A DNA stretch of 64,000 nucleotides from Marinicella sp. (GTDB taxonomy: Bacteria > Pseudomonadota > Gammaproteobacteria > Xanthomonadales > Marinicellaceae), in assembly GCA_965230295.1 (NCBI GenBank), contig OZ246001.1, positions 2,048,001-2,112,000 of the forward strand. The letters are read 5' to 3'. Of this stretch, positions 610-29,094 are shown piece after piece; within the stretch, counting starts at the first letter, position 1; every line of letters starts with the position of its first letter. The notes under the pieces are model-generated. The model did no database searches. It was given only the letters and a program-made list of their open reading frames with translations, and was not told the DNA's origin. A program made the position numbers and the translations under genes.

Positions 610-1956
610 TCAGACCAACGCCACCAACTGTGGGTAAAAATACAACAACACCAGCATCAATAATTGCAGCACAATGAAAGGCAGGACACCTTTGTATAAG
701 GCCCGTGTATTGATGTCACTGACACCACGCAGGTAGAACAAGGCAAAGCCAAAGGGTGGGGTGAGGAATGAGGTTTGTAGGTTGATGGCGATCATGATGC
801 CAAGCCAAACCGGGTCATAGCCCATCATCAATAGAATGGGCCCCACGATCGGTATCACCACAAAAGTGATTTCAATGAAATCCAAGATAAAACCCAGTAG
901 GAATAAAATCAACATCACCAACAGCAAAGCCGTCAGTTCGCCACCAGGTAAGTTGGTCAGGAAATGTTGTACAGCCTCATCGCCACCAAAGCCTTTGAAC
1001 ACCAGGGAGAACAAAGCCGCACCAATCAAGATCATGAACACCATGGCGGTGACTTTGACGGTTTCTTTCAAAGCATCACGCAACATGGTTGTGTTGAGTT
1101 TTCCATTCAAAGTGGCCAACAACAAGGCGCCCATGGATCCCACTGAAGCCGCTTCAGTCGGGGTGGCTATACCAGAGATGATGGAACCCAAGACCGCCAG
1201 AATCAAAAACAATGGTGGCAACAGCGATTTGAGGATGGTGCCCAAGCTCGGTTGGTTCTCAACAGCAATGGCTGGCATGGCATCAGGTCTTCGAATTCTG
1301 ACCCAAAATAAGTACAGTGCATACAACAACACCAACAACAATCCAGGTATCAGTGCCCCCATAAACAGATCCTGGACTGAAACGGTCTTGGGGTTGAAAA
1401 TGTTCATGTCCAGTTGGGCTTGTTGGTAAGCATTGGACAACACGTCCCCCAACAACACCAACACGATCGATGGTGGAATGATTTGCCCCAAGGTTCCTGA
1501 GGCACAAATGGTGCCAGCCGAAACGGCCGGATCATAACCATTTTTTTGCATCACTGGCATGGCCAACAACCCCAAGGTCACGACGGTGGCGCCAACAATT
1601 CCGGTACTGGCTGCCAGCAACATGCCGACGATCAACAGGGCGAAACCCAGACCACCTTTTTTGCTGCCCAACAAGGCAGCCATGTTTTGTAACAGGGATT
1701 CGGCCAATTTGGCTTTTTCCAGTACCACACCCATGAACACAAACACCGGCACGGCCATCAATGTCGCATTATTTAAAATGCCGTTGAGGCGATTGGGCAG
1801 GGCCGCAATGAAATCGGCATCAAACCAGCCAGTAAGAAATCCGATCAACGCGAACCAAAGAGACACCCCGCCCAAGGTAAAAGCCACCGGAAAACCGGCC
1901 ATCAAAACGCCGGTTACAGCGATAAACAGCAACAGGGCCCACCAGGCTTCCATCAA
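610..1956 (-). CDS. dctM: TRAP transporter large permease (DctM-like)
   Basis: 448 aa polytopic membrane protein; GTLGQIIPPSI and LTPPFGFALFYL motifs. Confidence 0.9.
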   Translation of the reverse strand: MMEAWWALLLFIAVTGVLMAGFPVAFTLGGVSLWFALIGFLTGWFDADFIAALPNRLNGILNNATLMAVPVFVFMGVVLEKAKLAESLLQNMAALLGSKKGGLGFALLIVGMLLAASTGIVGATVVTLGLLAMPVMQKNGYDPAVSAGTICASGTLGQIIPPSIVLVLLGDVLSNAYQQAQLDMNIFNPKTVSVQDLFMGALIPGLLLVLLYALYLFWVRIRRPDAMPAIAVENQPSLGTILKSLLPPLFLILAVLGSIISGIATPTEAASVGSMGALLLATLNGKLNTTMLRDALKETVKVTAMVFMILIGAALFSLVFKGFGGDEAVQHFLTNLPGGELTALLLVMLILFLLGFILDFIEITFVVIPIVGPILLMMGYDPVWLGIMIAINLQTSFLTPPFGFALFYLRGVSDINTRALYKGVLPFIVLQLLMLVLLYFYPQLVALV

Positions 1957-18002: not shown

Positions 18003-19214
18003 TCATTTCCTGATCTCGGCGCTTTGTTGGTGATAAACCAAGCCTTCGGCCTCTGCCAGCTTGGCTGCAATGTTGGCCAACACCCCACGGCCTGTTTCAT
18101 TGATTTTTTGGGTTGACAGTACTTTTAAAAATTGATGTACGCTCAAGCCACCAGAAAACTTACCGGCACCAGCGGTGGGTAGGGTGTGGTTCGGACCGGC
18201 ACAATAGTCGCCAAAGGCCACCGCTGAGTTTTCACCGATGAATAACGAGCCATAATTGGTAAACAGTGCGGTTTTCATCGAAGTGTCACAGACCATCAAA
18301 TGTTCTGGGGCGTAGTCATTGATGAAGTCTAAGGCCTGTTGTTGATCATCTGCCAATAACAACACGATGTTGCCATGAGCGAGCAATTCTTTACCCTTGT
18401 CATGTTCGGCCAACAGGTCGTAAAGATTTTCTAACAGGCTGTCAGTTTCACTGACCACAATACTGATCGCATGGGCGTCATGCTCGGCTTGCGCCAGTGC
18501 GTCAAACATCAACCATTCAGGCTGCTTGATTTGGTTGGCGTAGATCAACAGTTCACTGGGCCCAGCCAAGGTATCTATTTGGGTGCGGTGTTGAACCTGT
18601 GCTTTGGCTTGATTGACAAAGGCATTACCCGGCCCAACAATCATATTCACTGGTGGGGTTTGGTCAAAGCCGTAGGACAGAGCGCCAATGGCCTGGGCGC
18701 CGCCAATATGGATGAATTGAGTGGCACCTGCCAAAGAAGCAGCGGCCAATAATGCAGGATCATCAGAAGGCGAGCAGGCCACCCGCACTGGGCAACCAGC
18801 CACTTGTGCTGGAGTTAACGTCATCAATGCGGTTGAAATCAATGGAAACTGGCCACCGGGTATGTAAGCACCGATGCGTTCGATTGGCTGATACACGAAA
18901 CCAAAATCACCCATTTCGTCACTGAACTGGTCATTTTTTAAATCTTTGATCTGAAATTGGCAGAATTTTTTGATGCGTCGGTGGGCGCTTTGGATGGCGT
19001 CTTTCAATGACTGGTCTATCGGGTACTCATCAAAAGGCAGCAGTTCAATGTATTGAACATCTTGTTGGTCGATTTTTTGACTGATGGCTTGAACCGCCTT
19101 ATCACCATGGTTTTTGATTTTGTCTAAGATCTTGGCCACCGTGTCTTCAATTTTGCTTTGGTTTTTGAAAGCAGGGCGTTGGTAGTCTAGGGTGTTGGTG
19201 TATTTAGCGTTCAT
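18003..19214 (-). CDS. hisD: Histidinol dehydrogenase
   Basis: YIPGG, GPGNAFV, AGPSE, QAEHD, APEHL, GDYCAGPNHTLPT; ATG 19214 overlaps the upstream stop. Confidence 0.95.
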   Translation of the reverse strand: MNAKYTNTLDYQRPAFKNQSKIEDTVAKILDKIKNHGDKAVQAISQKIDQQDVQYIELLPFDEYPIDQSLKDAIQSAHRRIKKFCQFQIKDLKNDQFSDEMGDFGFVYQPIERIGAYIPGGQFPLISTALMTLTPAQVAGCPVRVACSPSDDPALLAAASLAGATQFIHIGGAQAIGALSYGFDQTPPVNMIVGPGNAFVNQAKAQVQHRTQIDTLAGPSELLIYANQIKQPEWLMFDALAQAEHDAHAISIVVSETDSLLENLYDLLAEHDKGKELLAHGNIVLLLADDQQQALDFINDYAPEHLMVCDTSMKTALFTNYGSLFIGENSAVAFGDYCAGPNHTLPTAGAGKFSGGLSVHQFLKVLSTQKINETGRGVLANIAAKLAEAEGLVYHQQSAEIRK

Positions 19215-20439
19215 CGTTTCGACTCCGCAAATCATTGACAATTTCCTGGTAGCTGACCCCTTTGGATTTGGCCATCACCAGGGTAAAAAACAGCAGGTCT
19301 GCTGCTTCCCAACGCACATGGTTATGCTCGGTGGCTTCAATCAACTCATCACATTCTTCTTTCAGTTTTTCTATTTGCAAGGCTTCACTGGCAAACAGTT
19401 TCTGACTGAATGATTGGGTTTCTGTTGTAGCCATGCGTTGTTCAAACACTTCATCCAGGTAATCCAAAGAATAGTTCCTGGTTTGGCTGGCAAAACAAGA
19501 GTACCGATCAAAATGGCAAGCGTTGCGGTTCTGCTCAACCAAAAAAAGCAAGGTGTCACCGTCACAATCCACATCCACCTGGATCAGCTTTTGGGTGTTA
19601 CTGCTGGTCAAACCCTTGGTCCACAGTTCATTTCTGGAACGGGAAAAATAGGTGCCGGTGCGATTTTCCAATGCATGTTCTAGTGATTCAGCGGAAGAGT
19701 AAGCCATCATCAAGACTTTGTTGGTCTTTACATCTTGAACCACAGTTGGGATCAATGGCAGTTTGTCAAAATCCACAAGTGACATGAAAGCCTGGTTCAG
19801 TGACATATGCCCTGAGTAAATGGCCATGCCGATTTGAGAATTGGCTCCACGGGCATTGATCCATTGCAAATCTTCATAACTGGTGATGCCACCGGCAACT
19901 GTCACCGGAATCGGCGAGGCTTTGATCACTGCACTGATCCGTTGCTGGTCAATACCCTGCATCATGCCTTCTTTCTTGACCTGGGTGTACAGAAATTCGC
20001 CACAGTTCTGGGCCCAGTCAGCAATGATGTCGAGTACTTTGATGTCTTGGGTTTTCTTCCAGCCGTGGGTGGTGAGAAAATCGTCTTTGGCATCAATGGC
20101 AAAAATCAGCGATTGCCGTGGTAGCTTTTTGACCCAATCCTGACTGGCAGAAGTGCCCAGGATGATTTTGGTGGCGCCGGCTGCCAAATAATTCTTAGCC
20201 GTTTCCAAATCGCGGATGCCACCGCCCACCCGACAGGGACGTTTGCGCAGCAGCTGTTCGATCAGATCTTGATTTGAGCCATGACCCATGGCGGCATCCA
20301 AATCAATGATGGCCACTTCGCCATACATGGCAAATTCTTCCAGCAGTTCGAACACATCATCGCGCTCGATGATCTTTTTATCACCTTGCTGGAGTTGAAC
20401 GGCCTTGCCGCCCATGAGGTCTATTGATGGTATCAGCAT
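19204..20439 (-). CDS. hisA/hisIE: HisA-HisI-HisE fusion (isomerase + PR-AMP cyclohydrolase + PR-ATP pyrophosphatase)
   Basis: N-terminal IPSIDL, DLDAA, VGGGIR; then YFSRSRNELWTKG, DCDGDTLL, ACH; then KLKEECDEL, EAADLLF. Confidence 0.9.
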   Translation of the reverse strand: MLIPSIDLMGGKAVQLQQGDKKIIERDDVFELLEEFAMYGEVAIIDLDAAMGHGSNQDLIEQLLRKRPCRVGGGIRDLETAKNYLAAGATKIILGTSASQDWVKKLPRQSLIFAIDAKDDFLTTHGWKKTQDIKVLDIIADWAQNCGEFLYTQVKKEGMMQGIDQQRISAVIKASPIPVTVAGGITSYEDLQWINARGANSQIGMAIYSGHMSLNQAFMSLVDFDKLPLIPTVVQDVKTNKVLMMAYSSAESLEHALENRTGTYFSRSRNELWTKGLTSSNTQKLIQVDVDCDGDTLLFLVEQNRNACHFDRYSCFASQTRNYSLDYLDEVFEQRMATTETQSFSQKLFASEALQIEKLKEECDELIEATEHNHVRWEAADLLFFTLVMAKSKGVSYQEIVNDLRSRNDER

Positions 20440-20461
20440 ACTTTCTCCTTACCAGAGCCAT

Positions 20462-20523
20462 CGTCATTACCCGGCTTGACCGGGTAATCCATAGCGAAGC
20501 GGGTTCGAACGAAGTTCGAAAAT
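20462..20523. repeat. REP-like palindrome between hisF and hisA
   Basis: GTCATTACCCGGCTTGACCGGGTAATCCA plus TTCGAAC..GTTCGAA; near-copy at 48467-48529. Confidence 0.75.
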
Positions 20524-20560
20524 ATCATTGTCATTCTTTGTTCAGGTTTCATATTCTGAG

Positions 20561-21355
20561 TTAATCCAAAGTGTTTCTGACTTTAATGTTGTTGTTGATT
20601 AGAAATTCTTTGATCTGCCCCACGGTGTATTCGCCACGGTGGAACAAACCTGCGGCCAAAACCGCATCAGCACCGGCATGAATCGCGTCTAAAAAGTCTT
20701 GTGGACCATTGGCGCCACCTGATGCAATCACTTGTACTGGAAAGTCAGCGCCGAATTGTGCCAGTAAATTGGTGTCAAATCCACTGCCAGTGCCATCTTT
20801 GTGCATGGCAGTGAGCAAAATCTCACCTGCACCGCGGTCAACGACCTCTTTGATCCAGCCGTGGTAGTCCACTTCGGCCCGCCGAGAACCGCCATGGGTG
20901 TAGATGGCCAACTCCCCATTGGCTTCATGGTTCACATCCACCGCCACCACGATACTTTGGGAGCCATATTGGGTAGAAATTTGATTGATCAGTTCGGGTT
21001 TTTCGACGGCCATGGTGTTTAGGGTCACTTTATCGGCACCGGCATGAAAGAACTTGTGCACGTCATCCAGGGTTTTGATACCACCACCCACAGCAAAGGG
21101 AATGGATAAATGGGTGGCCACTTGATAAACCATGTCGAGAGCCGATTGTTGACCGTCAACAGAAGCCTTGATGTCCAGGAAAATCAGTTCATCGGCACCT
21201 TGTTGTTCATACATTTTGGCCAACTCAACCGGATCACCCATGTCTAACAATTCTTTGAAATTGGTGCCTTTGACGACCCGTCCATAGGCCACATCCAGGC
21301 ATGGAATGATCCTTGCAGTGAGGTCAGAGTTTGAGTTATTGTCATTGACATACAT
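20561..21355 (-). CDS. hisF: Imidazole glycerol phosphate synthase cyclase subunit
   Basis: RIIPCLDV, GDPVELA, GADELIFLDI, GAGEILLT, VIASGG. Confidence 0.95.
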   Translation of the reverse strand: MYVNDNNSNSDLTARIIPCLDVAYGRVVKGTNFKELLDMGDPVELAKMYEQQGADELIFLDIKASVDGQQSALDMVYQVATHLSIPFAVGGGIKTLDDVHKFFHAGADKVTLNTMAVEKPELINQISTQYGSQSIVVAVDVNHEANGELAIYTHGGSRRAEVDYHGWIKEVVDRGAGEILLTAMHKDGTGSGFDTNLLAQFGADFPVQVIASGGANGPQDFLDAIHAGADAVLAAGLFHRGEYTVGQIKEFLINNNIKVRNTLD

Positions 21356-21947
21356 GTTTGATCAGCTCCCTACCAAAAACACCGGATTTTTCCGGGTGAA
21401 ATTGAAATCCGTATAAATTGCCACGTTGCACCGAAGCACAAAACGCATCACCGTAATTAACTTTGGCGGTGGCGAATGGACATTCAGTGATGGCATAAGA
21501 ATTGACGAAATAAGCATACTGGTTTTTTAAGGTCAGTTTGTATGAATTCAGTTTGGCCCAGCCCACCATTGGTGTTTTGGGGTGCGGTAACCGGTGACAA
21601 CGGCCTGGAAATAACCCAAGGCCTTTGGCTTCAGGGTCTTCATCACTGCCCTCAAACAACACTTGCATGCCGACACATATACCAATCAGGCGTTTGCCAT
21701 TGCGGACCCATTCCAATAAAAATTCACGCCAACCATTTTGATCAATCTGATTCATCACGAAAGCAAAGCGCCCTTGGCCTGGCATCACCAAAACATCCAG
21801 CTCGGTGAGGTATTCTGCTTTGGGTTGTTTTAAGGTTTGTAACTCACAATCGGCCACTTCAATGGCGGTTTGCATACTCAGCAAGTTACCTGAGTTCAAA
21901 TCAATCACGCCCACACGGGTTTTGGGCTTGCTGAGGTCTTTGGTCAT
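21342..21947 (-). CDS. hisH: Imidazole glycerol phosphate synthase glutaminase subunit
   Basis: PGQG, GICVGMQ, QFHPEKSG. Confidence 0.95.
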   Translation of the reverse strand: MTKDLSKPKTRVGVIDLNSGNLLSMQTAIEVADCELQTLKQPKAEYLTELDVLVMPGQGRFAFVMNQIDQNGWREFLLEWVRNGKRLIGICVGMQVLFEGSDEDPEAKGLGLFPGRCHRLPHPKTPMVGWAKLNSYKLTLKNQYAYFVNSYAITECPFATAKVNYGDAFCASVQRGNLYGFQFHPEKSGVFGRELIKHVCQ

Positions 21948-22516
21948 AACACCCCCTTGGTGGAACGCTCACCAGCAACCGGTTGTAAGGCTTCTTTCAT
22001 GGCATAGGCCAGTGCTTTAAAGGCACTTTCCACCAAGTGGTGGTTGTTGCGGAAATATTGGTTTTTCAAGTGCAGGCAGATTTTGCTGTTGATGCTCAAA
22101 GTGTAAAAAAAATGCTCCCACATTTCAGTGTTGATGCCACCGAGTTGAGGCTGTGAAAACGGCAGATCGATCACCGCATAGGGCCGGCCGCACAAGTCCA
22201 CCGCACACATCGTCAAAGCTTCATCCATGGGCAGCAGGCGTTGGCCATAACGTTGGTTGGGTTTGGCCGCTTGCCAAGCTTGGTACAGGGCATCGCCCAA
22301 GCAAATGGCCACATCTTCGATACCGTGGTGGTCATCAACTTCTAAATCTGCTGTGACTTGCAGGTCCATAAACCAACCGGCGTGTGACGCCAGTTGGTCC
22401 AGCATGTGATCAAAAAACGGCAAGCCGGTGTTGATGTTTTTCTTTGAAGGATCACCAGTGATGTCCAAGGACAATTCAATTTGGGTTTCTTTGGTGGCTC
22501 TGGATACCTGAATCAT
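21944..22516 (-). CDS. hisB: Imidazoleglycerol-phosphate dehydratase (monofunctional)
   Basis: FFDHML, DDHHGIED, PMDE, NNHHLVE, STKGVL; no N-terminal phosphatase domain. Confidence 0.95.
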   Translation of the reverse strand: MIQVSRATKETQIELSLDITGDPSKKNINTGLPFFDHMLDQLASHAGWFMDLQVTADLEVDDHHGIEDVAICLGDALYQAWQAAKPNQRYGQRLLPMDEALTMCAVDLCGRPYAVIDLPFSQPQLGGINTEMWEHFFYTLSINSKICLHLKNQYFRNNHHLVESAFKALAYAMKEALQPVAGERSTKGVL

Positions 22517-24150
22517 AATAAAGCCTCTAATTGGTTGATGTTTTCAAGGACCAGATCGGCCCCTGCCTGATATAAATTTTCTTTGGCGGCTGGGTCGGTG
22601 GCACCGATGCCAATACACACACAGCCGGCAGCGTTGCCTGCTTGCATGTCATCAACGGTGTCGCCACAAAACCAAATGCGCTTGGCCTGGCTGTCATCAA
22701 TGACTTGAAACAAACCTTCTGGATCGGGTTTTTGTTGTTCCACATCATCTGCGCTGATGATGTAAGAGGGTTGAATGTTCAGTTGATTGACGCCTTGTTC
22801 GGCTTCCATCCGTGGCCGTCCGGTCACAATGGCGGTGGGTCGTTTGGCTTTAAATACCTGTTGTTTGAGTGGATTCAACAGCAAGTCTTGCTCTTGTTCA
22901 ACCAAACCTGGGGTTTGTCCATCGCCCAAATAGAGAGTTTGGAAGGTATTGACCACCAGTTCATACGGTATGTCAAAGCCGCTTTGCTTAATCAATTCTG
23001 CAGCCAACACCCAATCGTTGTTGAAACCACCTTGGGCCCGGACTGTTTCAATGTCGGTCTGATTGACGCCTTGGCCTGTGAGCTCCTCGACGGTTTTGAT
23101 GATGCATTGATCATAACTCAAAGAAGTGTCTATCAATACCCCATCCATATCAAATGCCAACAACTCAGGTTTGAGTATCAATTTCAATGCTTGCATGAAA
23201 GTATCCATGTACTCAGGAATGGTGAGGCGTATGGCACGTGGCAAACCACCCAGTTCAGTTTTGATCTGGATGCCTTGTTTTTCCATGACCCGGGAAAACA
23301 ATTCTTTTTGTGCTGGGTTGGTTTCGAACAGCACAAAGTTGCCGCGACTGGGGCATACCCGTAATCCCGTTGATTCGAGCAGTTTGACCACCATGGTGCG
23401 ATTGGTCTCAATCGTTTGGCAGTATTCCTTGATTTCATCGCGGGCTTGCCAGGCGGCAGCGGCCAGTTGTAAATTGGCCCGTGAAACATTGAATGGCATG
23501 GCAATTTGCTTGAAACGTTCAATCAACTCAGGTGCACCGAATATGTAACCAATTCGAGCCCCTGCCAGGCCAAAGGCTTTGGAGAAGGTGCGCAAAGTGA
23601 CCAGATTGGGATAGGCGGCATAATCGATGGGCTCAACCTCATTAGCGAACTCTACATAAGCTTCATCCAGAAAAACCCAAGCACCTTTGCTCTCAGCTGT
23701 CTCGATCAGGTCAACCAAGACATCAGCGGCCAAGTATTCACCTGTGGGGTTGTTGGGCCGGGTCAAAATGACCCATTGATTGGCTTGGATATTCGCCTTT
23801 AAGACTTCGGTATCAATGGATAAATCATCGCATGCTGGAACGAAAGTGGTTTGGTTGTTCCAGACTTGTTGGTTGTGGGTGTACTGGCTGAAACAAGGTT
23901 CTGGTACCAACAGTGATTGGTCATTGAGCTTACAATTTTTATAAAGCAGCTCGATGCTTTCATCACCGCCATTGGTCAACATCACGGAACCACTGCTCAG
24001 ACCCATATCGGCTGCCATTTGATTTTCCAGTACGGCTCGATCTGGGTAACACCATAAATCGTCCACTTTCAATTGAAACCGTTTTAACCATTCGGGCTGT
24101 GAATCGGCCCGCTCGTTAAAGTCCAGCTTGAGTTTCACCTCGTTCATCAT
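22513..24150 (-). CDS. hisC: Histidinol-phosphate aminotransferase fused to a HAD phosphatase
   Basis: NGGDE, PNNPTG, DEAY, RTFSKAFGLAGARIG; C-terminal FDMDGVLID, GGFNNDW, KPDPEG, GDTVDD. Confidence 0.9.
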   Translation of the reverse strand: MMNEVKLKLDFNERADSQPEWLKRFQLKVDDLWCYPDRAVLENQMAADMGLSSGSVMLTNGGDESIELLYKNCKLNDQSLLVPEPCFSQYTHNQQVWNNQTTFVPACDDLSIDTEVLKANIQANQWVILTRPNNPTGEYLAADVLVDLIETAESKGAWVFLDEAYVEFANEVEPIDYAAYPNLVTLRTFSKAFGLAGARIGYIFGAPELIERFKQIAMPFNVSRANLQLAAAAWQARDEIKEYCQTIETNRTMVVKLLESTGLRVCPSRGNFVLFETNPAQKELFSRVMEKQGIQIKTELGGLPRAIRLTIPEYMDTFMQALKLILKPELLAFDMDGVLIDTSLSYDQCIIKTVEELTGQGVNQTDIETVRAQGGFNNDWVLAAELIKQSGFDIPYELVVNTFQTLYLGDGQTPGLVEQEQDLLLNPLKQQVFKAKRPTAIVTGRPRMEAEQGVNQLNIQPSYIISADDVEQQKPDPEGLFQVIDDSQAKRIWFCGDTVDDMQAGNAAGCVCIGIGATDPAAKENLYQAGADLVLENINQLEALL

Positions 24151-24999
24151 TCACACCACTTTTCTGATCGGTAATTCCAGGATGTCAGTGGCACCGGCTT
24201 GCTTCAGTTTGGGAATCAAATCTTTGGCTGCACCTTTGGGGATGGCGGCACGTACTGAGTAGGCTTCGGTGTTGAACAATTTACTGACAGTTGGTGATCG
24301 CATGGCAGGTAGTAATGAAACAATTTTTTCAATGTCATTACTTTGGCAATTCATTTCCAGTAAAACGCGTTGTCGGGCATTCATCACGCCGTTGATCAAC
24401 AACAGCATGTCATCAATCACGGCTCTCTTGTCTGGGTCTTCTAAGGCCGCTTTGTTGGCAAAAAACTGGGTGGCACTTTCATACACCACATCACATATTT
24501 TCAAGCGGTTGGCTTTGATGGTGCTGCCGGTGCTGGTGTTATCAATCACCATATCGGCATCTTCAGGTGGGAACACTTCAGTGGCACCATAAGATCGAAT
24601 CAACTGGGCATCGAAGCCTTTGTCTTCGAGGAATTTTTTTGCCAGATTCATGTATTCTGTGGCCACAATGATCTTGCGCTGTTTCAAAGCTTCATAATCC
24701 CAGTCCTCCGGGATACAGGCCACGATTTCGACTGGGTTGAACCCCAAGGGTTTGATGATTTCTACGTTGGCCCCTTGTTCAGCGATCCAGTCCATGCCTG
24801 CAAACCCGATGTCATGTTGGCCCAACTCCACCAATGATGGGATGTTCTGTCCTTTGAGCAATTTGATTTCAAAACGGTTGTCAGAACAGCTGGGACGGTA
24901 ATTGCGCTCATCGCCCATGATGTTGATGCCAATGTCTGACAACAGCTTGAGGATCTCAATTTGTAATTTCCCCTTGGGGATGGCCATTTTAATTTTCAT
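24151..24999 (-). CDS. hisG: ATP phosphoribosyltransferase (long form)
   Basis: AIPKGKL, ATEY, GATE, DNTSTGSTIKANRL, C-terminal regulatory domain. Confidence 0.95.
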   Translation of the reverse strand: MKIKMAIPKGKLQIEILKLLSDIGINIMGDERNYRPSCSDNRFEIKLLKGQNIPSLVELGQHDIGFAGMDWIAEQGANVEIIKPLGFNPVEIVACIPEDWDYEALKQRKIIVATEYMNLAKKFLEDKGFDAQLIRSYGATEVFPPEDADMVIDNTSTGSTIKANRLKICDVVYESATQFFANKAALEDPDKRAVIDDMLLLINGVMNARQRVLLEMNCQSNDIEKIVSLLPAMRSPTVSKLFNTEAYSVRAAIPKGAAKDLIPKLKQAGATDILELPIRKVV

Positions 25000-25048
25000 G
25001 ATGTTTTCTCAGTATTTTTTTGTTCGATTCAGGCCCTTTATGTAAGCC

Positions 25049-25076
25049 AAAAAAAACCCCGTCTTTTCGACGGGGC
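25049..25076 (-). terminator. Attenuator terminator 2 (hisG-proximal)
   Basis: GCCCCGTC-GAAAA-GACGGGGT followed by a T run on the minus strand. Confidence 0.9.
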
Positions 25077-25097
25077 TTCGTGAATAAAATGCGAATT

Positions 25098-25163
25098 TCA
25101 GCAGCGCCGTCTCAATATGTCGGTCAAATGATGATGATCCATTATTGGTTGATTGTTTTTCAT
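25098..25163 (-). CDS. hisL: His leader peptide 2 (MKNNQPIMDHHHLTDILRRRC)
   Basis: Three tandem CAT codons; ends about 20 nt before terminator 2; GACGG in its 3' end can pair with CCGTC of the terminator; no clear SD. Confidence 0.75.
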   Translation of the reverse strand: MKNNQPIMDHHHLTDILRRRC

Positions 25164-25185
25164 GTTAATTCAGTAATTTCAGTCC

Positions 25186-25219
25186 AAAAAAAAGCCCCGT
25201 TTGATGTAACGGGGCTTTT
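25186..25219 (-). terminator. Attenuator terminator 1 (promoter-proximal)
   Basis: AAAAGCCCCGTT-ACATCA-AACGGGGCTTTTTTTT on the minus strand. Confidence 0.9.
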
Positions 25220-25244
25220 ATAAGAATTCTTTTTCAAATTGGCA

Positions 25245-25304
25245 CTAAGCCACCCCGTTGTCAGTTAACGCATGGTGATGGGTATGTGCAAATCTTGTGT
25301 TCAT
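25245..25304 (-). CDS. hisL: His leader peptide 1 (MNTRFAHTHHHALTDNGVA)
   Basis: Four His codons (HTHHH); AACGGGG in its 3' end pairs with CCCCGTT of terminator 1; in-frame ATG at 25313 lies inside the -10 box. Confidence 0.8.
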   Translation of the reverse strand: MNTRFAHTHHHALTDNGVA

Positions 25305-25311
25305 GGTTCGC

Positions 25312-25340
25312 ATGTTAGAGAGGTTTGTTGGGTTTGTCAA
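25312..25340 (-). promoter_or_regulatory. sigma70 promoter of the his operon
   Basis: TTGACA-17 bp-TAACAT; 7 nt separate the -10 from the ATG of leader 1. Confidence 0.75.
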
Positions 25341-25542: not shown

Positions 25543-28500
25543 ATGTCATATTTTTTCCATTATCTGAGACAGCATTTGATGCTGATCGGACTTGTTTTGT
25601 CTACAACTGCTTCCTCTTCCAAACAGTTCAGCCAAATGAATCATGCGCCTATTAACGAAGCGCCTCATGCTGTGAGTGAAAATTCATGGAAGGTTTTGAA
25701 TCAAACCATTCACGATATGAAGTTATTGCCTTCACCTGCAGGCATCGGCTCTGAGGATGCCGGATTTTTCGGTGAAAGCGTTGCTGTTGAAGGAGACCGG
25801 GCTTTGATTGGGGCGCCTGGTGTGCTTGGGCACGGAGTGGTTTTTGTGTTTGATTGGATCGGTGACTCTTGGGTGAAAACCGATGTGTTGGAGCCGGTTG
25901 ATGGGGAAGATGGAGATCAATTTGGTGGCTCTGTGAGTCTTTCCGGTGGGCGTGTTTTGGTCGGCGCCTATCAAGATGATGATTTCGGCAATGCATCAGG
26001 TGCAGCCTATGTATTTGAATTCAATCAAGGGGTGTGGACGCAAACCAATAAATTGTTACCCCAAGATCCAGCAGCCAATGACCATTTTGGCAGGGCCGTG
26101 AGTTTGTTTGCAGATCGTGCTTTGATTGGTTCATCACAGGATGACGACAACAACACCAGTTCTGGGTCTGTCTATGTATTCGATTTGGTCAATGGACAGT
26201 GGAGTGAAACATTCAAGATAAAGCCAGATGATGGGGCTTTCGGTGATGTTTTTGGTTATTCAGTCAGTTTATCCACCGATCGTGCTTTGATTGGTGCCTA
26301 CGGTGATGACGATGAATTCAATCTCTCCGGTTCTGCCTATATTTTTGACTACTTCAATGGCCAATGGTCTCAGACACAGAAATTAACTGCTGCTGATTCT
26401 CAAACCTGGGCAAATTTTGGTTATGCAGTCAGTTTGGATGGAGATCGGGCTTTGGTAGGCGCCTACAATGATGATTCAGGGTTCATCGATTCAGGTTCGG
26501 CTTATGTGTTTGAGTTAGCAGCAGGTGTTTGGGGACAAACAGAAAAACTAACTGCATCTGATCAGGCAGAAAGTGATCGCTTTGGACGTACGGTGATGTT
26601 GTCAGGAGATCGCGCATTGATTGGCAGCCGTGATGACGATGACAATGGCTTGAATTCAGGATCGGCCTATTTATTTGAACTCAATGGAGGTGTTTGGTCC
26701 GAGACCATTAAATTGACCCCCAATGATGGTGCCTTAAGCGATTGGTTTGGTGCAGCTGTAGGGTTGTCGGGTGACCGGGTCATCATCGGTGCCAATGGAG
26801 ACAATGATTTTTTTCCACAGTCTGGGTCAGCCTATTATTTCGCTTTGAATGAGGGAACTTGGTCACAACAACAAAAATTAACCGCGGGTGAAGGCGCTGC
26901 TGCAGATCAATTCGGGTTTTCGGTCAGCATTTCCGGCAACCGCGCTCTGGTTGGCGCCATTTATGACAAGGACAACGGCAACAATTCCGGATCAGCCTAT
27001 ATATTTGAATACAATGACAGCGACTGGATACAAACGGCCAAATTGCTTGCTGCTGATGGCGAACCTTTTGATGTATTTGGGTATTCGGTCAGCTTGTCTG
27101 GAGATCGGGCTTTGGTGGGCGCATTTGGTGAGGATGATCAAGCTGCACAATCAGGGGCCGCTTATATCTTCGAGTTGGATTCAGGGGTGTGGTCGCAGAC
27201 TGCCAAACTAAAGGCAGACAATGCCAGTGCGGATGACTTTTTTGGTTATTCGGTGAGCTTGTCGGGCAGTCGGGCATTGGTGGGCGCCTATCTGGCGGAT
27301 GGCAAAGGCATCACCGATTCAGGTGCCGCTTATATGTATGATCTAGTTGGTGGTATATGGATCCAAACCACAGAATTAAATACAGACGATGCAGAGGTCA
27401 ATGACCGGCTTGGTGTGGCAGTGAGCCTGGATGGAGATCGGGCATTGGTGGGGGCATTTCTTGAGGATGACAATGGCAACAATGCGGGTTCTGCTTATGT
27501 GTTTGATAACAACATGGGAACGTGGAATCAGACGCAGAAATTGTTGGCCAATGATGGGTCGGGCTTTGACCATTTTGGTCGTGCTGTTAGCTTATCAGGC
27601 AACCGGGCTTTGGTTGGTGCTTACTTGGACGACGAGAATGGCACCAATTCAGGTTCTGCCTATGTGTTTGATTTTGATGTTGGTAGTTGGTCTCAGTCGA
27701 GCAAGTTGATGGCTTCTGATGGTGTTTTGGGCGATGAATTTGGTCGTGCCGTAAGCCTTGAAGGTGATCGTGCGCTGGTGGGTGCTTATTTGGATGATGA
27801 TCAGGGCATAGAATCAGGGTCAGCTTATGTATTTGAATTATCTGATGGATCATGGTCTCAACTCAATAAACTGACTGCTGCCGATGGCCAAGCCAATGAC
27901 CAATATGGTTTTTCAGTCAGTCTTGAAGGTGATGCGGCATTGATCGGTGCGTTCTTAACAGATGATCACGGCCTCGACTCAGGATCAGCATACGTGGTGG
28001 ATGTGGTCCCAAAATATACAGTTTCGGTTGATGTATCGGGTTTGGCATCAGGTAACTCGGTGGCGTTCAGGAACAATGGGGTTGATCCTTTATTGGTGTC
28101 GACCAATGGCTTGACCACATTTGTCACACCCATACGTGATGGCAATGCATATGATGTGACTGTCCACCCGCCTCAACCCTCCAATCCAAACCAAATATGT
28201 GTAGTCACAGACCCTATGGGTAGCATCGAATCGGCCGATGTGGTGTTGGATGTTGTTTGTACCACTTTGACATATTTCATTGGTGTGACGGTAACAGGCC
28301 TCGATGACAACAACACAATCGAGTTAACCACCAACATGCAAAGCCTGGTTTTTAACACCAACACCATGATGAATTTTCCATTACCACTGGATGATGGCAC
28401 CGACTATTCAGTGTTGCTCACGGCTCAACCAGTTGATCCAAATCAAACCTGCGTTGTGACCGGTGGCAACAGTGGAAGTAATGATGGTTCAGGCGCCCTC

Positions 28501-29094
28501 AATGGAATGGATGCGATGGTTGCTGTTGATTGCACCACCAATCAATATGCCATTGGCATCAATTTATCGGGATTGGCAGCAACCAATTCTGTCAGTTTCA
28601 CCAATGGAGATGACACCCTGATGATGTTTGCAGATGGGTTGTCGGTGCTTTCGACCTTGGATGACGGGTCACTCTATGATGTAAACATCGCCACTCAACC
28701 ACAATCGCCCAATCAAACCTGTTCATTTCTATCAGCCAATTCTGGCACTTTGGCAGGGCTGGGAGTGCAAATAGAAGTGAGTTGTATCACCAACAGTTAT
28801 TTCATTGGAGGAATTGTTGATGGTTTGCTTTCTGGTAATTATTTGGTGTTGCAAAACAATGGTGGTGATGACAAAGTCATCACTGTAGACGGCCCGTACA
28901 TTTTTGATAGCCCCTTGCTTGATGAGCAAACCTACAGTGTCACGATTGATCTGCAACCGAACAATCCGATTCAACCGTGTTTTGTCCAAAACGGGCAATC
29001 AACTCTGGCAGGTGCCGACGTGACCAATGTCAACATAGAATGTTTGTTTGGCGATGATTTGATTTTTCGCGACTCCTTTGGGAACTTCGATTAA
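25543..29094 (+). CDS. Secreted FG-GAP repeat protein
   Basis: 14 FG..V.L.GDRALVGA repeats, then four Cys-containing repeats; ends DDLIFRDSFGNFD. Confidence 0.88.
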   Translation: MSYFFHYLRQHLMLIGLVLSTTASSSKQFSQMNHAPINEAPHAVSENSWKVLNQTIHDMKLLPSPAGIGSEDAGFFGESVAVEGDRALIGAPGVLGHGVVFVFDWIGDSWVKTDVLEPVDGEDGDQFGGSVSLSGGRVLVGAYQDDDFGNASGAAYVFEFNQGVWTQTNKLLPQDPAANDHFGRAVSLFADRALIGSSQDDDNNTSSGSVYVFDLVNGQWSETFKIKPDDGAFGDVFGYSVSLSTDRALIGAYGDDDEFNLSGSAYIFDYFNGQWSQTQKLTAADSQTWANFGYAVSLDGDRALVGAYNDDSGFIDSGSAYVFELAAGVWGQTEKLTASDQAESDRFGRTVMLSGDRALIGSRDDDDNGLNSGSAYLFELNGGVWSETIKLTPNDGALSDWFGAAVGLSGDRVIIGANGDNDFFPQSGSAYYFALNEGTWSQQQKLTAGEGAAADQFGFSVSISGNRALVGAIYDKDNGNNSGSAYIFEYNDSDWIQTAKLLAADGEPFDVFGYSVSLSGDRALVGAFGEDDQAAQSGAAYIFELDSGVWSQTAKLKADNASADDFFGYSVSLSGSRALVGAYLADGKGITDSGAAYMYDLVGGIWIQTTELNTDDAEVNDRLGVAVSLDGDRALVGAFLEDDNGNNAGSAYVFDNNMGTWNQTQKLLANDGSGFDHFGRAVSLSGNRALVGAYLDDENGTNSGSAYVFDFDVGSWSQSSKLMASDGVLGDEFGRAVSLEGDRALVGAYLDDDQGIESGSAYVFELSDGSWSQLNKLTAADGQANDQYGFSVSLEGDAALIGAFLTDDHGLDSGSAYVVDVVPKYTVSVDVSGLASGNSVAFRNNGVDPLLVSTNGLTTFVTPIRDGNAYDVTVHPPQPSNPNQICVVTDPMGSIESADVVLDVVCTTLTYFIGVTVTGLDDNNTIELTTNMQSLVFNTNTMMNFPLPLDDGTDYSVLLTAQPVDPNQTCVVTGGNSGSNDGSGALNGMDAMVAVDCTTNQYAIGINLSGLAATNSVSFTNGDDTLMMFADGLSVLSTLDDGSLYDVNIATQPQSPNQTCSFLSANSGTLAGLGVQIEVSCITNSYFIGGIVDGLLSGNYLVLQNNGGDDKVITVDGPYIFDSPLLDEQTYSVTIDLQPNNPIQPCFVQNGQSTLAGADVTNVNIECLFGDDLIFRDSFGNFD

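Follow-up and report, generated by a model that had tools for sequence, protein, structure and literature searches.

The his operon of a Marinicella species is probably controlled by a two-stage, ribosome-mediated transcription attenuator for histidine, in which two leader modules, each with its own run of His codons and its own terminator, stand in series upstream of hisG. The element is located in a stretch of 64,000 nucleotides (nt) of contig OZ246001.1 (GenBank assembly GCA_965230295.1, positions 2,048,001 to 2,112,000), which is called the window below. Direct reading of the minus strand gives, in order, a promoter, leader open reading frame (ORF) 1, terminator 1, leader ORF 2, terminator 2, a small hairpin and hisG (Table 1). 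Both modules contain the elements that characterize a His-type attenuator, namely an ORF with a His run, an intrinsic terminator, an antiterminator that is mutually exclusive with it and a geometry that permits masking by a ribosome. An earlier note on this DNA, made from its letters by a model, had proposed two such attenuators in series before hisG, both of them maintained. Its promoter, leaders and terminators are confirmed base for base on the minus strand, with all coordinates correct, and its overall proposal agrees with the comparison described below, in which both modules recur in related loci, both antiterminators are retained and no conserved internal promoter is found.

Table 1 Features of the his leader and its surroundings in the window (position 1 is the first letter of the window)
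Feature	Coordinates	Strand	Details
Sigma-70-type promoter	25312..25340	-	-35 TTGACA 25340-25335, 17-nt spacer, -10 TAACAT 25317-25312
Leader ORF 1	25245..25304	-	ATG 25304 to TAG; encodes MNTRFAHTHHHALTDNGVA
Region 2 of module 1 (AACGGGGT)	25252..25259	-	antiterminator segment
Intrinsic terminator 1	25186..25219	-	AAAAGCCCCGTT-ACATCA-AACGGGGCTTTT + further T
Leader ORF 2	25098..25163	-	ATG 25163 to TGA; encodes MKNNQPIMDHHHLTDILRRRC; HHH 25136-25128
Region 2 of module 2 (GACGGCGCT)	25103..25111	-	ends 2 nt before leader 2 stop
Intrinsic terminator 2	25049..25079	-	GAAGCCCCGTC-GAAAA-GACGGGGTTTT + further T
hisG, long-form ATP phosphoribosyltransferase	24151..24999	-	ATG 24999; TIGR00070 157 bits, TIGR03455 93 bits
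Rest of his operon	18003..24150	-	hisC-HAD hydrolase fusion, hisB, hisH, hisF, hisA-hisIE fusion, hisD
Divergent 1183-aa ORF	25543-29094	+	no NCBIfam match at E<=0.001

The promoter preceding leader 1 matches the consensus at 10 of 12 positions in a promoter scan of the window. Leader 1 carries four His codons, one at 25286-25284 and three (HHH) at 25280-25272. Its antiterminator segment, called region 2, ends 3–4 nt ahead of the leader 1 stop codon and can adopt two alternative pairings: with the His-codon region (the 1:2 hairpin) or, as the antiterminator, with GCCCCGTT in the 5′ arm of terminator 1. This second match, between AACGGGGT and GCCCCGTT, had already been noticed in the sequence. 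Terminator 1 comprises a 12-bp stem with eight G/C-rich core pairs, a 6-nt loop and eight T nucleotides in all after AACGGGGC, part of which are counted in the stem. A simple scan of the window called terminator 2 but not terminator 1, probably owing to the tail rule of that scan, given that an A/T extension of the stem takes up part of the T run.

Module 2 has the same parts. Its region 2 pairs with AGCCCCGTC (25077-25069) of terminator 2 through eight pairs arranged around one C.C mismatch, an antiterminator that proves to be longer than the GACGG/CCGTC match first described. Terminator 2 consists of an 11-bp stem, a 5-nt loop and eight T nucleotides in all after GACGGGG, part of them again counted in the stem.

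The 273-nt leader as a whole folds with a z score of -3.69, a value that none of 200 shuffled sequences reaches, and its minimum-energy and centroid structures are both dominated by the two terminator hairpins. Among the 737 terminators called by a terminator finder in the complete 4.0-Mb genome, just two same-strand pairs lie 40–260 nt apart; one is the his leader, and the other, located after the end of a chaperonin-like ORF, is unrelated. The tandem his terminators are more than a chance occurrence, and the tandem design is specific to his rather than general in this genome. The same genome (C1) contains two candidate single leader peptides before terminators, the Thr/Ile-rich MQNRIGTTTTITTRQKQVMC at about 1348114 (plus strand) and the Ile/Val/Leu-rich MNLIANINLINVVVVILVIIGPRVW at about 1184463 (minus strand).

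The switching behaviour of both modules was modelled by masked folding in the 32 loci that carry the tandem (described below). Each module was folded up to the loop of its terminator, that is, before the 3′ arm exists, with a ribosome assumed to cover positions -15 to +12 around the A-site codon, and the 5′ arm of the terminator was scored as sequestered when it formed at least 5 bp with upstream sequence. With the ribosome at a His codon, the arm is predicted to be sequestered in 32/32 loci for module 1 and 31/32 for module 2 (26/32 at the last His codon); with the ribosome at the stop codon, the corresponding values are 3/32 and 7/32. In these folds, the classical attenuation geometry holds for both stages. 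When no ribosome is present, the arm is sequestered in 18/32 loci for module 1 and 23/32 for module 2, and on these values the model does not assure ‘super-attenuation’ in the absence of translation. Region 2 ends within a few nucleotides of the stop codon in most modules and begins 7–16 nt past the last His codon; in some modules, mainly Kangiella leader 2, it lies 22–34 nt upstream of the stop.

Alignment of hisG upstream regions from relatives, which had been suggested as a check, reveals how widely this arrangement is kept. After removal of duplicates, 49 distinct hisG loci from Marinicella, Kangiella and allied metagenome-assembled genomes (MAGs) were compared, and a module was defined as an intrinsic terminator together with an ATG ORF of 6–45 codons that carries a His run and ends 0–110 nt before the terminator. 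By this definition, 32 loci possess two modules (19 from the Marinicella genus-level group, ten from Kangiella or Kangiellaceae and three from other MAGs) and 17 possess one. A locus counted among the latter, L056, has only 225 nt of upstream sequence before its contig ends, and this sequence starts with the tail of another terminator; L056 is probably tandem as well. When terminators were located independently of the His criterion, a His run was found before 81 of the 83 that lie within 450 nt upstream of hisG, and the two exceptions, at -320 in L048 and L077, look like the ends of upstream genes. Leader ORFs with a His run homologous to leader 1 are present in 49/49 loci, and the leaders of relatives contain three to seven His codons each. 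Apart from the His run and the codons shared with region 2, the peptide sequences vary freely, as expected of leader peptides. The parts of the element, their order, their conservation and their pairing potential are established from the sequence and this comparison.

Conservation of pairing was evaluated in alignments A1 (module 1, 23 sequences) and A2 (module 2, 18 sequences). Antiterminator 1 is paired in 97.3% of cells, compared with 25–60% in slid registers, and antiterminator 2 is paired in 91.7%, compared with 25–57%. For antiterminator 2, seven cells have changed on both sides, a score reached by 0 of 500 shuffles, and a CG to UA exchange is present in six sequences. Inspection by eye of further loci reveals that the terminator 2 arm and region 2 change together: CTGTTG (CCCTGTTG) in L042 occurs with CAACAG, and CCGTTG (CCCCGTTG) in Kangiella is matched by CAACGG or CGACGG. 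The antiterminator 1 duplex of the window has a predicted energy of -13.6 kcal/mol (z -3.0) within a spread of -7.4 to -16.2 kcal/mol, and values of -12.6 to -16.2 kcal/mol (z about -2 to -4.6) are obtained throughout the Marinicella genus group and for single loci of the same type; among all module 1 copies, the duplex is weakest (-3.5 to -8.3 kcal/mol) in some Kangiella-group loci and in the outliers L046 and L071. Terminator 1 is nearly invariant in A1, and the 1:2 hairpin formed by the His codons and region 2 of module 1 is paired in 80% of cells overall and in 91% for helix 3, against 34–45% when slid.

Several observations weigh against a two-stage reading. Covariation in antiterminator 1 is thin, with one double-change cell and with 32–44 of 500 shuffles reaching each observed measure, because the terminator and antiterminator stems are so conserved. 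The structures that were tested came from the window sequence itself, and this gives them an advantage over the slid registers. For the 1:2 hairpin of module 1, no significant covariation was detected, as 152 of 500 shuffles score as high. Antiterminator 2 of the window, computed with the short arm used by the script, reaches only -7.1 kcal/mol (z -1.1). Module 2 has no convincing 1:2 ‘protector’ hairpin to tie region 2 to the His codons, and terminator 2 might be bypassed rather than enforced when the leader is not translated. There is no recognizable Shine–Dalgarno (SD) sequence before leader 2 in the window. Moreover, the second stage is dispensable in some lineages, since 16–17 related loci have one module, and the Rfam His_leader model recognizes neither module.

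Some of these observations would also fit an alternative in which only one module works as a sensor, the other being either a duplication relic or a constitutive ‘safety’ terminator that reduces expression whether or not histidine is present: the single-module loci, a leader 2 that in the window has three His codons only, no clear SD and the weaker antiterminator, and the missing 1:2 hairpin of module 2. A relic, however, would be expected to lose its His run, reading frame and antiterminator, and all three are kept in both modules of the 32 tandem loci, down to a hisG identity of about 62%. In addition, no single locus with a complete upstream sequence has a decayed second module; the module is cleanly missing. 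On balance, we regard this alternative as quite improbable. The lack of a clear SD before leader 2 noted earlier is real for the window, but many relatives have a GAGA-type element 8–14 nt upstream of leader 2 that, read by eye, resembles the one before hisG itself.

The phylogenetic distribution of the two states suggests how the single loci arose. A HisG tree of 49 rows, including two partial proteins (L069, 191 aa; L075, 148 aa), requires seven to eight state changes between tandem and single, at least six of which are forced by well-supported branches. Single-module loci are nested in tandem clades, with L040 placed by L039, L038 and L072 by L037, and L015 and L043 by L042. Every single locus with full upstream sequence keeps the promoter-proximal type of module, with a peptide that ends in NGV, DGA or a sequence like that of Kangiella leader 1 (...V(Y/C)V). 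From this nesting and from the retention of module 1, we infer that the single loci are secondary losses, that the tandem is older than the divergence of these operons and that its second stage was lost repeatedly. By eye, the sequence after the only terminator of L040 matches that after terminator 2 of its sister L039, which points to a precise deletion between two similar terminators. Loss of stage 2 by precise deletion, eased by the repeated terminators, appears to have occurred about five to seven times.

The origin of the tandem is harder to read from the peptides. A shared HHH(A)LTD peptide had been taken to imply duplication, and this argument turns out to be weak: LTD is common to both leaders only in the sub-clade of the window, and the leaders of Marinicella pacifica-type and Kangiella loci have no such likeness between modules. 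Instead, the module 2 peptides of the Marinicella pacifica type (..QRRWF) resemble those of Kangiella (..RRW..). Scoring of similarity between modules 1 and 2 was rejected as a test of duplication, because their shared function (His codons, CCCCGT stems) gives similarity anyway. Duplication as the ultimate origin is plausible, and on these comparisons it would have to be old.

Three further sequence features lie close to these elements. A small GC-rich hairpin (GGCTT..GGGCC) at 25032..25048 of the minus strand directly follows the T run of terminator 2 and would be present on read-through transcripts only. Relatives have GGCC..GGCC, GGCT..AGCC, GGTCAT..ATGACT or GTCCAT..ATGGGC at the same place (L031, L035-L037 and L039-L041), which suggests that the hairpin is kept. 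In the Marinicella pacifica-type loci L044, L047, L049, L051, L054 and L057, the apex of terminator 2 (GTCGCCATTG) is complementary to CAATGGCGAC just past the T run, about 40–60 nt upstream of hisG, and these segments could form a third alternative pairing after read-through. Finally, the 7-mer ATGCGAA (window 25307-25314, minus strand, overlapping the -10 box and the start of leader 1) is the reverse complement of TTCGCAT (25089-25095, minus strand), which is located between leader 2 and terminator 2; both are kept in the sub-clade of the window (A1, A2) and not in other clades, and the match may be due to chance.

A series of two attenuators presupposes one transcript. The candidate explanation that terminator 1 ends an upstream gene is ruled out, as the upstream neighbour is divergent and on the opposite strand, and nothing on the minus strand reads into the leader. 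Another arrangement would comprise two transcription units: leader 2 and the operon would be driven by an internal promoter, and module 1 would form a separate short transcript, either a small RNA or a peptide gene, that ends at terminator 1. A promoter-like sequence, TTAACA-16-AATAAT (25168-25141, 10/12), is indeed present in the window, and a TTGAC-like hexamer often follows the T run of terminator 1 in relatives. However, the window site lies inside leader ORF 2, where it would start transcription at or past the His codons, and it is common to none of the other 31 tandem loci. Any such match between the terminators occurs in only 9/32 loci, scattered between -7 and +90 with the leader 2 ATG as reference, and shuffled sequence yields 2.1 +/- 1.6 matches per 900 nt. 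Thus, an internal promoter driving module 2, which the earlier note had named among the findings that would refute its proposal, is not conserved among the 32 tandem loci in a consensus scan, whose reach does not include weak or non-sigma-70 promoters. Module 1 also has every feature of an attenuator aimed downstream, and we give the two-unit arrangement a very small chance of being correct. The distance from the T run of terminator 1 to the leader 2 ATG, estimated by eye from the listed 48-nt upstream stretches, ranges from about 13 nt to more than 40 nt.

The start of leader 1 has a property that had been missed in the earlier note. Its ATG is located 7 nt after the -10 box in the window, and a -35/-10 pair ending 6–7 nt before the in-frame start of the first leader is found in 32/49 loci under strict rules and in 46/49 with a relaxed pattern, the chance rate of which is estimated, not computed, at a few per cent. 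Of the three loci missed by the relaxed pattern, two are on cut contigs and the third is a distant locus from Planctomycetota. Judged by this spacing, leader 1 is therefore probably leaderless, with transcription starting at or adjoining the A of its AUG. To our knowledge, no leaderless leader peptide has previously been proposed in Gammaproteobacteria, a point at which no search was aimed.

These different start contexts, with leader 1 placed 6–7 nt after the -10 box and leader 2 internal and poor in SD sequence, would be compatible with two working modules that are not redundant and that respond to different signals or thresholds. For example, stage 1 (leaderless and 70S-dependent) might also report on translation initiation, and stage 2 on His-tRNA alone. 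There is a natural precedent in the mgtCBR leader, which uses two ORFs for two signals (PMC3641672). Nevertheless, the regulatory codons are the same in both his leader ORFs, neither of which has any further conserved codon run, and the nucleotides of region 2 account for the non-His residues that are conserved (NGV; RRR/RRW). A division of labour between the modules is on this evidence improbable.

We therefore return to two stages that sense the same signal, for which the following mechanism can be proposed. A single promoter would give rise to a transcript that probably opens with the AUG codon of leader 1. When His-tRNA is charged, the first ribosome would reach the stop codon of leader 1 and cover region 2, and terminator 1 would form. 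Polymerases that leak past it would transcribe leader 2, where a second ribosome would repeat the same decision at terminator 2. When charged His-tRNA is scarce, each ribosome would stall on the His codons, region 2 would capture the 5′ arm of the terminator while its 3′ partner is still untranscribed, and the polymerase would go on to transcribe all seven genes of the operon. The read-through levels of the two stages would multiply, so that basal expression should be lower and the response steeper than with either sensor of three to four His codons alone. Tighter switching than with a single sensor is probably what the tandem provides; a tighter, steeper response had also been proposed in the earlier note. 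Translation of both ORFs, use of both terminators and multiplicative behaviour are in this scheme deduced from the arrangement of the parts. A more ambitious version, in which an old and conserved natural two-stage attenuator reads charged tRNA-His twice, through a leaderless stage 1, on whose 5′-terminal AUG the first ribosome loads as soon as the transcript emerges, and an internal SD-poor stage 2, and obtains a near-digital response from three to seven His codons in each, is offered tentatively and seems to us possible but somewhat doubtful.

Among known systems, the closest in function is the enterobacterial hisL leader (RF00514), which likewise has a His-codon ORF, alternative antiterminator and terminator hairpins and an intrinsic terminator directly upstream of hisG. 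The enteric his leader has one leader peptide with seven consecutive His codons and a 5′ untranslated region with an SD sequence. In contrast, the Marinicella element has two leaders with three to four His codons each and two terminators, and its first ORF starts 7 nt past the -10 box. A search with the RF00514 His_leader model (cut-off 49 bits) gives no match in the window at E<=10 and none in its own genome, and the best scores on ten related loci are 33.9 and 33.3 bits, below the cut-off. The Marinicella element would thus work like a His leader but is, by its sequence, not a member of RF00514. An Rfam scan of the window likewise returned no family at or above cut-off; sub-threshold matches to Thr_leader (24.1 bits) and Trp_leader (22.7 bits) were set aside as reflecting merely a generic ‘hairpin plus terminator’ shape.

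Two wider searches were also made. RF00514 has no match over cut-off in 151 class-level genomes, although the model is so narrow that this result is uninformative. A degenerate tandem pattern, consisting of two runs of four His codons that start with CAT and lie 101–160 nt apart, is a weak test, as the window itself does not match it; it matched 28/401 genomes, and a subset of 30 fetched loci gave no tandem pair and one weak single (L115). By their sequence, the pattern matches resemble repeats within longer coding stretches.

How translation of a leader is coupled to transcription is described in PMC9413887 and modelled in PMC1183508, where the sensitivity of an attenuator rises with the number of regulatory codons. 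Tandem arrangements of other kinds have been published. The Salmonella mgtCBR leader contains tandem attenuators with two short translated ORFs that control elongation, with independent and additive effects (Lee and Groisman 2012, PMC3641672); its ORFs sense different signals, ATP and proline-charged tRNA, and they lack intrinsic terminators. The his tandem resembles mgtCBR in having two short ORFs in one leader, but both carry His codons, and each is followed by a canonical intrinsic terminator. Double T-boxes, for which a recent origin by duplication and ‘a sharper response’ have been suggested (PMC9413887), and the metE tandem riboswitch cited in PMC3641672 share with the his leader the placement of two complete units of sensor and terminator in series in one 5′ leader. 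They differ in that riboswitches and T-boxes sense a ligand or tRNA directly by RNA, whereas a his leader relies on a translating ribosome as its sensor. Engineered tandem pT181-type antisense attenuators multiply their effects and thereby raise sensitivity, and have been modelled by squaring the function of a single attenuator (bioRxiv 10.1101/018358). Multiplication is also the behaviour proposed for the his tandem, although the pT181-type devices are synthetic, controlled by antisense RNA and involve no translation. Lastly, erm resistance genes with two leader peptides in series exist (PMC8274638), but these operate by translational attenuation, with a drug-stalled ribosome as the signal rather than an amino acid.

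Given these precedents, the view that no tandem leader-peptide attenuator had been described is too broad as a general claim, since mgtCBR and the two-leader erm genes are published, and stands for amino-acid attenuators that read the same signal twice. Neither a same-signal tandem leader-peptide attenuator nor a tandem His leader was found in the accessible text of the literature searched, including PMC9413887, PMC2965389 and PMC1262725; a 2004 comparison of proteobacterial attenuators and the supplements lie outside that search.

The operon controlled by this leader comprises seven genes, with hisG first. Its hisC is fused to a TIGR01548-type HAD hydrolase, a candidate histidinol-phosphatase (22513-24150, minus strand), hisA is fused to hisIE (19204-20439, minus strand) and hisD is the last gene rather than the second. 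The window belongs to a 4.0-Mb single-contig genome of the Marinicella genus-level group, and the nearest named relatives of its HisG are from Marinicella species, with 93% identity to that of M. meishanensis. The closest HisG proteins outside Marinicella are those of Kangiella (62–65% identity), which is assigned to a different order in the NCBI lineage and which also has a hisC-HAD fusion immediately downstream of hisG. Other families of the same order as Marinicella (L025-L030) have HisG proteins only 25–30% identical and no His leader; their hisG is preceded by an ORF of about 100 codons that by translation looks TrpR/YerC-like. Because the Marinicella operon is like that of Kangiella and unlike those of its order-mates, the operon and its leader would appear to travel as a unit, and this resemblance hints at horizontal transfer of the operon together with the leader. 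In Kangiella aquimarina (L058), a TwoAYGGAY RNA (RF01731) is matched at 835-972 (minus strand) with 44.9 bits, narrowly above the 43-bit cut-off; the match lies some hundreds of bases upstream of the his leader.

If the proposed function is correct, this element would be the first natural same-signal tandem leader-peptide attenuator. Both modules escape the Rfam His_leader model, and therefore annotation by that model alone would miss them. Sister species that lack stage 2 (L039/L040, L037/L038 and L042/L043) provide ready-made controls for a natural test of the ‘multiplication’ behaviour that has so far been shown only with engineered attenuators (bioRxiv 10.1101/018358), and the conserved 7-nt distance from -10 to AUG supplies a second testable point, a leaderless leader peptide. 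At least 32 species, from the families Marinicellaceae and Kangiellaceae, have kept the tandem, and the two families belong to different NCBI orders. Leader-peptide attenuation is a textbook mechanism, and in these bacteria, tight control of the his operon is seemingly achieved through two short sensors in series rather than one long one.

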